A stretch of 64,000 bases of DNA from a virus (lineage: Duplodnaviria > Heunggongvirae > Uroviricota > Caudoviricetes), in IMG/VR virus record IMGVR_UViG_2718218396_000003; one strand, 5' to 3'. This document shows positions 3,001 to 6,000 of this stretch, in pieces. Each line of letters opens with the position of its first letter. The stretch's first letter is position 1. Made by a program: the position numbers.

Positions 3001-6000
3001 ATCACAAATCGCACTTTCATGAAATTCCATATATCACCTCAAATAAGTGGTTTGCTGCCTAATTTCATTTTCTGGCGACCAACACAAGTCATCTTGCTGT
3101 CAGTTGTTTGGATTTACGGTAGCCTGCCGCGTAAAGAGCTACATTTGGAAGACAAGTTGAGCCTTCATATTTTCTGGTCAACGTTGTCAGTGTTATTACT
3201 TCTGCTCTCATTGCTGGTTTGCGTTTGCATTGTAAGACCACTCGTGATGGGGTTGGCCTGTGTAGTTTGTCGGAGCTAATCGCCTCCTGACTTTGCAGGT
3301 TTGCGCGACGAGCTCTACGGCGAGAAGCTGCGGTGCCTTTAAATTCTGTTTTTCTGGACATAGATTCCTCCCGAATAAACTTTGGCGATGCAATCTCGAA
3401 GCTCCTCCTGAGACGGTTGCTTCGGCATTGCATCCCACAGCTTATGTGGTTGGGTGATCTGGCTTTTCAGCCACGTAGTCGAGAGTCGACGTTGTTTAAA
3501 GAGCCTGCCAGTCTGTTCCATTTGGCTTCCAGCGTCCTGCTGATGGTTAAATAGTACGATATGTACTTCACTTGGTCAATACAATTTGTTCTAAAACGGG
3601 GCGTTTTTTTACAACGCTTTGTATTTAATAGTATTGTTTTTTAGCGTGGGTGTATTGCCTCGGCGATGTAAGGAGAGATCAGAATTGCGTTGTTTAGTGA
3701 GTTGTATCTATTTATTTTCCAATAAATACAATTGGTTATGTGTTTTTTTGGGCGAGAGGAAAAGAAAACCCGGCATGGAGGCCGGGTTGATGATTAGCGG
3801 TGTGGCCTTGAGCGATAATGCTCACACACATGTTCAAGATTTCCATGCCTTATCCGTTCATAGGCATTCACATGAACTTCTCGATCGAATTGGTCATTCA
3901 AATTGTATGTAGACATCTGTGTTTTCTCATATTGGCGGCAGCCCTACAACCGCTTGAAAAAATGTACCAGACGCGCTAAGGTTACATCGCAAATATTGTG
4001 TACCTTAACAAGGGCTCCTTTTGGAGGCTCTGGTTAAACAGCATCAATGTCGGACTGGGGAGTTGGACATTGTGCTGAATGCTTTTGCATTATTGAGGCC
4101 GAACGTAAACCTTCAGAATTGAAGAGATGCGTTCGGCTTCTTCGTTTGTGATATCGTTAGGAATGCCTTTAATCGTTACTGTAACCCCTGATTCAGGTCG
4201 AAGAACTACTGGAAGATCATAGGTATGAAGTGCATTAGCCTTGCCTTCGACTTTTGTTGGTTCGCCAGTCAAATCTTTTTCCTCACTGGATTCTTTGTCA
4301 ATCGGAGTGTATGGGATTTCTTCACCAGACTGGAAAGCTACAAACTTTTTGATTGCACTTTCCATGCGGCTTTTATATGCAGTAATGCTGCTGTCGCTAG
4401 GCTTCGGCTCAGTTGCGTTGATGTATCGCTCGGCAAGCTCATTCACATCAAGCTGAGTAACATCACCCATTTCCTCTTCTTGGACTACCGTTAAGAGGCG
4501 AGCGGATGAGTTTTTTAAATTTCGAGCGGTGGCCTCCTTCATTATGTTCAGCGACATAAGCTCTTCAAGGAAGTCCTTGAATGCCTGCACGCTAACGTTT
4601 GACTTTGCCATTTGCTCTCTCTCTAAGTTATTGACTCAGATCGAGTTTATCCAGGAATTGATTTGCATGCAAGACTCAAGTCTTGAGAATTTCCGTTCAA
4701 GATCCACTCTCAATAAAAAAGGCCGCACCTCTGCGACCTTTCATCTCCTAAATCTCTTTTCTCTTACCTAAAGAAACAGCAGGCTGGGTCAGCCCTAACA
4801 ACTTCAAGTGCATCGGTCAGAGAAAGCTCCGTGCTATACAGGTGTTATTTCATATCTTTTTGCATCCAATAAATTTTCCATCTGTCCAGAGAGCGGATGC
4901 ACTTGATTCTTGTTGATGGCAGGACGTTTTTTCACCTGCCTCACCCTGCCATACAGGACGCTGCTCACCGATATCTATCGTCCGGTCATTGATGTTATAG
5001 ACAATATCCAGATCATTACGGATATACTCAGATGGCCTTATGCTTTCAATGAATAGATGAACTTCTTTTTGACCGCTTGATACTCATGGCCATTAAACTC
5101 CATCTATCCTCTTTACCCAAACGTCTCTTCAGGCCATTGGCTGGCGATAACTTTCCCCACAACGGAACAACTCTCATTGCATGGGATCATTGGATATTGC
5201 GGGTTTAGTGGTTGTAGAAACACCTGACCGCTATCCCTGATCAGTTTCTTGAAGGTAAATTCATCACCACCAAGTCTGGCTATGCAGAAATCGCCGGGCT
5301 CAACAGCTTGCTCAGGGTCAACCAGAATTAACATCCCGTCAGGAAAACTAGGTTTGGAACCTGTTGGTGCGGTCATTGAGTTACCTTCAACCTCAAGCCA
5401 GAATGCAGAGTCACTGGCTTTTTTGGTTGTGCTTACCAATCTCTCCGCATCACCTTTGGTAAAGGTTCTGAGTTCTGGAGAGAACATCCCAGCCTGAACA
5501 TGAGAAAAAACAGGGTACTCATATTGTTTTTTAACTGGGGCCGATGAGTATTCGCCAACAGGTGAAAATGTCCCGTCGTGGTTGAATGATATGTTATCAA
5601 TACCAAGGTATTTAAACACCACACCAATATCACTAAGAGATGGATGACGAGATCCGCGCAACCAGTGTCCAATTCCACCCTGCGTCATACCTAGCTCTTC
5701 GGCTAACTTCTCTTGAGTTATGCCGAGCTCTTTCATTCTGGATCTAGCCAGTTCATACCATTTCATTTTCATGTCCTTATTATTACGCTCTGTACTGGAA
5801 CCATCCATGCACAATGTGTATTTTTACTTGTATTTGAGAAGTACATATTGTATTTTTTATTCGTGGTTACTATGGAGGGCATATGAGCAACCTACGAAAA
5901 TATCGAGAGTCACTGAATATCTCTCAAACAACACTTGCTAAGGCAGTTGGATGCACACAGGGAGCTATCGGACATTGGGAATCTGGTCGTCGCTTCCCAG

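Follow-up and report, generated by a model that had tools for sequence, protein, structure and literature searches.

The stretch of DNA analysed here (hereafter the window) is the 64,000-nucleotide viral record IMGVR_UViG_2718218396_000003, an Stx2 prophage of the VT2-Sakai/Sp5 type, and the element we studied lies in it between the repressor gene cI and the gene N. Its main gene is an open reading frame (ORF) encoding 173 aa, ORF173 (4090-4611, minus strand), which corresponds to ECs1184, Sp5 ORF23, VT2-Sakai orf22 and ORF b63 (phrog_2602), and whose product is called "hypothetical" in all records carrying it. Between 3600 and 5200 the window is 100% identical to VT2-Sakai, Nil2, phage 1717, phage 2851, the PA-series phages and the Morioka Stx1/Stx2 phages. 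Read along the minus strand, the order is cI (5113-5814), the pseudogene of a DUF3024 protein, a terminator, a promoter with palindromes, ORF173, a 173-nt spacer with a hairpin, a small gene that we term ORF40, a second terminator, OL/PL (3551-3626 by the annotation of AP005153) and N. A preliminary description of this locus had placed an acidic 173-aa gene between the repressor and N, and this gene is real, at the position described and with an isoelectric point (pI) of 4.85. The description had also given the slot a single gene, which does not hold, as the DUF3024 pseudogene and the conserved 40-aa gene at 3794-3916 are found there as well.

Between the cI terminator and t-imm lies a self-contained moron that is horizontally mobile and has ECs1184 as its main gene. 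The cassette (3759-4739, minus strand) consists of terminator, promoter, ORF173, spacer, ORF40 and terminator, and covers 981 bp between the two terminators. It could be aligned with Salmonella prophage loci (L009/L011) in one contiguous alignment of 999 columns with 85% identity, which begins precisely with the upstream hairpin and extends just beyond the downstream terminator. Among 5426 complete E. coli genomes the cassette is present in 234, and every copy is complete and at least 99% identical. Homologues of ORF173 with 52-83% identity are encoded between an S24-type repressor gene, which they directly follow, and N in prophages of Salmonella, of Proteus/Providencia/Morganella and of Serratia, and these prophages differ in their repressors and replication modules. 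The occupation of the same cI-N slot beside different repressors argues that ORF173 is an accessory gene and not an integral part of the lysis-lysogeny switch. A more distant homologue (40% identity) is carried by E. coli phage SH2026Stx1 in the order cI, DUF3024, homologue, 44-aa ORF, N, while in Yersinia phage YP3 the homologue is found directly downstream of xis-int. Two natural insertions of IS629/IS1203 flank ORF173 and spare both the ORF and its promoter. The one in strain NJS001 is at 3953-3958, and the one in strain 2159 is at 4736-4739, just upstream of the hairpin, between cI and the intact unit. As the latter insertion separates cI from the unit, the unit can do without transcription reading through from cI.

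The upstream boundary of the cassette is an intrinsic terminator (4712-4738, minus strand), composed of a stem (4738-4721) followed by UUUUUUAUU, which ends the transcript of cI and the pseudogene. Its predicted fold has an energy of -15.9 kcal/mol (z = -3.9) and it is kept in the Salmonella, Proteus, Serratia and SH2026Stx1 cassettes, so that the terminator-like hairpin reported earlier ahead of the gene, including its U-run, is confirmed. Because this conserved terminator intervenes, ORF173 is not co-transcribed with cI. A generic terminator scan missed the hairpin at 4721-4738 despite its criteria being apparently satisfied, and silence of the scan does not mean that there is no terminator. 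The same scan picked up the downstream intrinsic terminator (3757-3788, minus strand; hairpin 3788-3767, -14.3 kcal/mol, z = -4.8), which closes the cassette and is the counterpart of lambda t-imm. It had been described as a terminator at 3755-3788 following ORF173; a terminator is indeed there, but it closes ORF40, about 300 nt past the ORF173 stop codon. The DNA from 3673 to 3792 shows about 87% identity to the DNA that follows rexB, or different cargo genes, in other prophages of E. coli.

Upstream of ORF173 there is a putative sigma-70 promoter (4644-4672, minus strand), TTGCAT (4672-4667)-17-TAAACT (4649-4644), with a predicted transcription start near 4637. The sequence is the one proposed in the preliminary description, but it agrees with the consensus at only 7 of 12 positions, falls under the threshold of our scan, which did not call it, and taken alone is no better than chance. 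A -35/-10 pair is found 28-35 nt from the ATG in five diverged cassettes, with better hexamers in Proteus (TTGCAA-17-TAGAAT, 9/12) and Serratia (TTGACT-17-AAAAAT, 9/12), and this weak site gains weight because its position is kept across the five. The -35 hexamer is overlapped by a palindrome, CAAGACT-NN-AGTCTTG (CAAGACTNNAGTCTTG, 4670-4685), which is a candidate operator. This 16-nt palindrome is perfect in Salmonella despite a diverged left flank, is degenerate in Proteus and Serratia, and occurs once in the window, where other matches to the palindrome or to the -35 motif are at chance level. A second palindrome, TTGCATGCAA (4672-4663), was read from the sequence. Both of the palindromes noted previously at the -35 are therefore present, but TTGCATGCAA is unconserved among the cassettes compared, and inverted repeats of 7+7 nt are not rare. 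The 5′ untranslated region (UTR) of ORF173, GATCTGAGTCAATAACTTAGAGAGAG (4612-4643, minus strand), contains the ribosome-binding site and is conserved; CAATAACTTA and its flanking bases do not change among the window, Salmonella, Proteus and Serratia. The ORF173 stop codon is directly followed by an imperfect hairpin (4045-4072, minus strand). Compared with Salmonella, the middle 16 nt of this hairpin run the other way round (CCAACTCCCCAGTCCG vs. CAGACTGGGGAGTTGG), which looks like a flip across the arms of the stem. In SH2026Stx1 (L024, 2460-2500) we noticed a GCCUCAU-N7-AUGAGGC hairpin followed by UUUUUU immediately 5′ of the start codon of the homologue; this hairpin, which is absent from the cassette of the window, would sequester the Shine-Dalgarno sequence in an attenuator-like manner. 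An Rfam scan of 2500-6600 at E ≤ 1 yielded a single chance match elsewhere.

ORF173 is a conserved protein evolving under purifying selection. Its structure was predicted by AlphaFold from an alignment of 75 homologues (mean predicted local distance difference test, pLDDT, of 81.7). The model contains a four-helix N-domain (aa 8-94, nt 4330-4590, minus strand; pLDDT about 95), a disordered, acidic linker (aa 104-126, or more broadly 101-130) and a beta-beta-alpha C-domain (aa 130-168, nt 4108-4224, minus strand; pLDDT about 90). As modelled, the N-domain clearly adopts the four-helix fold of the integrase core-binding (CB, SAM-like) domain. The structures listed as most similar in fold include IntI4 (7.1-7.3), the CB domain of lambda Int (6.7-6.9), XerA, XerD, XerH and Cre, and lower in the list come two prophage repressors with an integrase fold, MrpR (SPbeta, 8a0a) and SroF (phi3T, 9rd5). 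Weak matches to the Phage_int_SAM and XerC/D profiles also recur across the ORF173 family, and the former statement that the protein has no recognisable motif is superseded by the predicted fold. We found no catalytic domain with an R-H-R-Y site in ORF173, which has no Phage_integrase match and ends at residue 173; being devoid of the catalytic domain, the protein is not an integrase. The invariant residues of the family cluster in ATARN (helix 2), in Y(K/R)SR (helix 4) and in a C-terminal P-x-x-x-R...P-x-D-L-T-x-x-E-A, the first two being basic motifs. Searches of Pfam, NCBIfam, PADLOC, PDB sequence profiles and BFVD by Foldseek gave no match covering the family (none significant in BFVD), ORF173 matched no PADLOC-DB v2 family at E ≤ 1, and no PDB chain resembles it significantly in sequence. 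Comparison by PHROG function and Pfam revealed no likeness to RexA/RexB or to a Ser/Thr kinase, and no paralogue of ORF173 was found in the window. Plus-strand ORFs across ORF173 (4225-4494, 4241-4456 and 4529-4771), annotated solely in the exhaustive AP005153 record, were judged spurious.

The second gene of the cassette, ORF40 (3794-3916, minus strand; sequence MSTYNLNDQFDREVHVNAYERIRHGNLEHVCEHYRSRPHR), encodes 40 aa rich in His, Cys and Arg and is unannotated in most records, but it is very probably a real protein gene. It matches phrog_21154 with E = 5e-8, and the 44-aa protein of SH2026Stx1, which matches the same family with E = 1.9e-31, is a homologue of which the DNA has diverged. The differences between ORF40 and its Salmonella copy are mostly synonymous (pN/pS = 0.13), and over the 300 nt 3′ of ORF173 the window and Salmonella share about 95% identity, more than over ORF173 itself. 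ORF40 is present in 49 of the 50 phage records holding ORF173, although these records represent only about three independent lineages. At the corresponding place Proteus and a metagenomic locus encode a small Cys-rich protein of 56-57 aa, and Serratia a 47-aa CxxC...CxC protein. A weak small-ORF match in the Enterobacter phage ENT4 (E = 0.06) was dropped, as it does not correspond to an ORF of at least 40 aa in that locus. Loci of the Proteus/Serratia/metagenome type (L003 6520-6680, L017 6541-6705 and L008 5538-5695) contain a spacer of about 150 nt with a conserved predicted RNA structure, in which 8 of 40 pairs show compensatory changes among three sequences only; it may be a structured regulatory RNA.

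Part of ORF40 coincides with an RNA reported before. EcOnc20 is an orphan Hfq-binding peak in Sp5 and a putative small RNA, mapped to the minus strand of NC_002695.1 at 1255628-1255753 (Tree et al., 2014, Table S2, PMC4104026). We converted these coordinates by an inferred shift of +142 from NC_002695.1 to NC_002695.2, calibrated on the AsxR terminator, and then by the offset of the window, which places EcOnc20 at 3829-3954 (minus strand), over the 5′ UTR of ORF40 and its first 29 codons. The part of the 5′ UTR within EcOnc20 holds AGA-AAA-...-AGA repeats. From an extended -10-like sequence at 3968-3960, TGGTACATT, transcription would begin near 3953, and the 200-nt stretch from 3956 to 3757 folds unusually well (z = -3.1). 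The scan also reported a promoter-like site at 3930-3902, but its -10 falls inside ORF40, and for this reason we did not accept the site as the promoter of that gene. ORF40/EcOnc20 may be the mRNA of a small protein or a dual-function RNA.

Published data provide both a phenotype and evidence of expression. In-frame, marker-free deletions of Sp5 genes were constructed in a K-12 lysogen by Mondal et al. (2016; PMC5155283), and ORF21 (ECs1180) and ORF23 (ECs1184) were the only genes whose deletions were unobtainable; no conserved domain was found in that study. The reported non-deletability of ECs1184 points to addiction or lysogeny maintenance, instead of or besides exclusion. In the RNA-associated proteome of strain Sakai ECs1184 was detected at a false discovery rate of 0.065 (2025 Nucleic Acids Research paper, PMC7618764), so that the protein is made in uninduced cultures, and by the PNK assay it is not a strong RNA binder (PMC7618764). 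An independent unit expressed in the lysogen, as had been suggested for ORF173, is thus borne out by the conserved terminator, the promoter-like site kept in position, the separation from cI by IS629, the protein in Sakai and EcOnc20. As for the other undeletable gene, ECs1180 (83 aa, phrog_2471) is at 2779-3030 (minus strand) in the window, just downstream of N, and has no Pfam match.

To the extent that the earlier account regarded ORF173 as an orphan, it has to be revised, since a profile search (E ≤ 1e-3) assigned 649 clusters at 50% identity to its family. Nearly all listed members are 160-200 aa long and share one architecture. In four of six distant members that we sampled the gene is divergently adjoined by an ATPase with AAA_14 and DUF4143 domains, which matches the PADLOC family PDC-S01 with E = 1e-89 to 1e-101. 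A scan of environmental loci, with one genome per species, recovered 32 loci (L027-L058) that span at least six phyla, among them Proteobacteria, Gemmatimonadota, Acidobacteriota, Chlorobiota, Verrucomicrobiota and Eisenbacteria. The PDC-S01 ATPase is head to head with the ORF173 relative in all 30 loci that have enough upstream DNA, and all 32 have an inverted repeat, ACGTTATATT-N14-AATATAACGT, in an intergenic region of roughly 52 bp, usually 9-13 nt (range 5-17) before the start codon. Each half of the repeat also includes an outward-facing -10-like TATATT; the repeat may be two divergent promoters plus an operator, and the ATPase rather than the small protein could bind it. PDC-S01 is an unvalidated single-gene candidate obtained by "guilt by embedding", an ATPase fused to a PD-(D/E)xK nuclease, and by the reported frequencies it ranks fourth among the defence candidates of prokaryotes (PMC12988326). 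Our literature search on DUF4143/AAA_14 returned noise only.

How can a gene be accessory cargo and yet be undeletable? A cassette that creates its own requirement is the most economical account. We tentatively favour the possibility that ECs1184 is the autoregulated, DNA-binding control subunit, similar to an antitoxin, of a mobile conflict or addiction module. This is our best reading of the CB fold, the repeats at the protein's own promoter, the tethered small domain and the variable partner. By this scheme the CB-like domain would bind DNA at the repeats in its own promoter, making the unit autoregulated, while the C-domain would contact a partner, and ORF173 would act as the control or neutralising subunit of the conflict module. 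In environmental bacteria the partner would be the ATPase-nuclease, and in the prophage the product of ORF40/EcOnc20 or another phage function. Loss of ORF173 would then be lethal, like loss of an antitoxin, as the harmful partner would be derepressed or no longer neutralised; such lethality would stabilise the prophage and could give exclusion of the abortive-infection type. The repeats at the promoter are strongly conserved in the environmental clade and suggestive in the phage clade. A broader version, which we regard as possible but more doubtful, is that the family combining the CB and beta-beta-alpha domains serves a large PDC-S01 branch as its unrecognised second member, a regulator or neutraliser, and that enterobacterial prophages, the main Stx2 phage of O157:H7 among them, captured the regulator together with a gene for a small Hfq-bound protein as an addiction or abortive-infection module. 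Such a captured pair of regulator and ORF40 would explain the non-deletability of ECs1184.

Several observations weigh against an addiction module controlled by ECs1184. There is no recognised toxin beside ORF173: ORF40 resembles no known toxin, has a near-neutral pI and has no Pfam or PADLOC match. ORF40 is also 173 nt downstream of ORF173 and behind a hairpin, unlike the arrangement of a classical toxin-antitoxin operon, and its homologue in SH2026Stx1 is located behind a strong terminator. Other cassette types hold unrelated small ORFs in its place, and the cassette of Yersinia phage YP3 holds none. The N-domain is net acidic, and DNA binding is read from its fold alone. Perfect inverted repeats of 7+7 nt are common, with 40 in the window vs. 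10-24 in shuffled sequences, and the 16-nt palindrome is conserved in part only, being perfect in Salmonella alone. A hidden Markov model built from four partner ATPases found no PDC-S01-type ATPase in the six-frame translation of the window. ORF173 has no PADLOC match and no known exclusion or defence phenotype, and the non-deletability is a negative result of a single study, which may be technical or reflect an effect in cis.

Other explanations account for parts of these data. The inability to delete ECs1184 from the Sp5 lysogen of K-12 (PMC5155283) would also be expected of a lysogeny-maintenance factor, as proposed by Mondal et al., which would bind either DNA of the phage or a protein of phage or host and silence lytic functions such as PL/PR, kil or N, so that its loss induces the prophage or frees a lethal early function. 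ORF173 adjoins cI and OL, and its predicted DNA-binding fold recurs in MrpR and SroF, which are master repressors of prophages. However, the cassette is mobile and common to prophages with unrelated repressors, and in Yersinia phage YP3 it is beside int; the candidate operator is not found elsewhere in the 64-kb window; and the environmental relatives are paired with an ATPase-nuclease and not with phage switches. We consider a maintenance function unlikely. Slightly more unlikely, in our estimate, is the idea of the preliminary description, by which ORF173 would be a superinfection-exclusion or defence effector expressed in the lysogen, like RexAB or Stk, that acts on incoming phages directly and has no addiction component. 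The gene does occupy the classical exclusion slot, is expressed in the lysogen and has relatives tied to a candidate defence gene, but an effector made of a CB-like domain and a beta-beta-alpha module of 40 residues has neither an enzymatic nor a membrane domain, and it has no PADLOC match. In the relatives the likely effector is the ATPase-nuclease and not the ORF173-type protein, and pure exclusion leaves the non-deletability unexplained.

The link to PDC-S01 could be read in the opposite sense, with the phage-borne protein acting as a solo PDC-S01 partner, an anti-defence decoy that shuts down or titrates PDC-S01-type systems of the host. Its relatives are obligate partners of PDC-S01, the phage copies have no ATPase, and the phage linker is acidic where many environmental relatives have basic-rich linkers. 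We hold this to be improbable, as the phage clade is just 23-27% identical to the PDC-S01-linked clade and differs from it in helix-2 residues, and as a decoy would account neither for lysogen expression from its own promoter nor for the failed deletion in K-12. Least probable, finally, is an accessory role in site-specific recombination, in which a free core-binding domain would modulate the integrase at core sites: the CB fold and the YP3 homologue directly downstream of xis-int are in line with it, but in almost all prophages the gene is in the cI-N position, far from int, the environmental relatives have no recombinase neighbour, and the protein has no catalytic domain.

Genes expressed in the lysogen from the slot between the repressor and N, such as lambda rexAB, 933W stk and Salmonella BTP1 bstA, have exclusion functions. 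ORF173 resembles them as lysogen-expressed cargo that immediately follows the repressor gene and precedes t-imm/OL, and the t-imm region of the window is homologous to that of rexB prophages. It differs from all three in having no relationship to them in sequence or fold and no known exclusion phenotype, and from rexAB and stk also in being reported as non-deletable. Morons, in Hendrix's concept, are promoter-gene-terminator insertions in lambdoid phages and are classically dispensable. Like them, the cassette is bounded by terminators, has its own promoter-like site, is placed between conserved neighbours, shows prophage expression and moves between genera as a single block, but it contains two genes, and the lysogen reportedly cannot do without it. 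Type II antitoxins have a DNA-binding N-domain, a flexible region, a C-terminus that binds the partner and an autoregulated promoter. With them ORF173 shares two domains and the disordered stretch that joins them, a palindrome at the -35 of its promoter, acidity, a reported deletion lethality and residence on a mobile element. Unlike those antitoxins it has the integrase CB fold and not a ribbon-helix-helix, helix-turn-helix, AbrB or Phd fold, and ORF40, its candidate partner, is separated from it by 173 nt and may be transcribed from a promoter of its own. The CB domain is shared with tyrosine recombinases, MrpR and SroF, whereas in ORF173 a beta-beta-alpha module takes the place of their catalytic-type domain. 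As to PDC-S01, the relatives of ORF173 are its invariable divergent neighbours in one widespread clade, but the window has no such ATPase and the definition of PDC-S01 includes no partner protein. The pairing in 30 of 30 loci across a conserved repeat suggests that in one large branch this common "single-gene" candidate is a two-gene system, with a regulator built from an integrase core-binding domain.

Sp5 is the prophage behind Stx2 production in E. coli O157:H7 Sakai, and an undeletable accessory gene beside its repressor bears on the stability of the prophage, and hence on carriage and induction of the toxin phage. The predicted fold, the boundaries of the cassette and the linked ORF40 make the unexplained non-deletability open to specific and cheap experiments.

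The neighbourhood of the cassette has some further features. The decayed DUF3024 gene between cI and the cassette (about 4770-5083, minus strand) is interrupted by a frameshift and a stop, and was matched in two frames when an intact Proteus DUF3024 protein was used as the tblastn query. An undamaged DUF3024 gene is found at the same position, between cI and the homologue, in Proteus prophages and in phage SH2026Stx1. Literature searches on DUF3024 and on WP_001130059 gave no result. PGAP annotates part of the remnant (4850-5050) as a protein of 66 aa whose start codon is ATT. The replication module of the window, which encodes a 273-aa initiator and a DnaB-like protein, is unlike the O/P module of VT2-Sakai. 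An IS3-family element (6689-7902, plus strand) with a 108-aa orfA and a 296-aa orfB is inserted between cII and the replication genes; it is probably of the IS629/IS1203 type seen elsewhere in the prophage, and it is absent from VT2-Sakai and from the Sakai chromosome.

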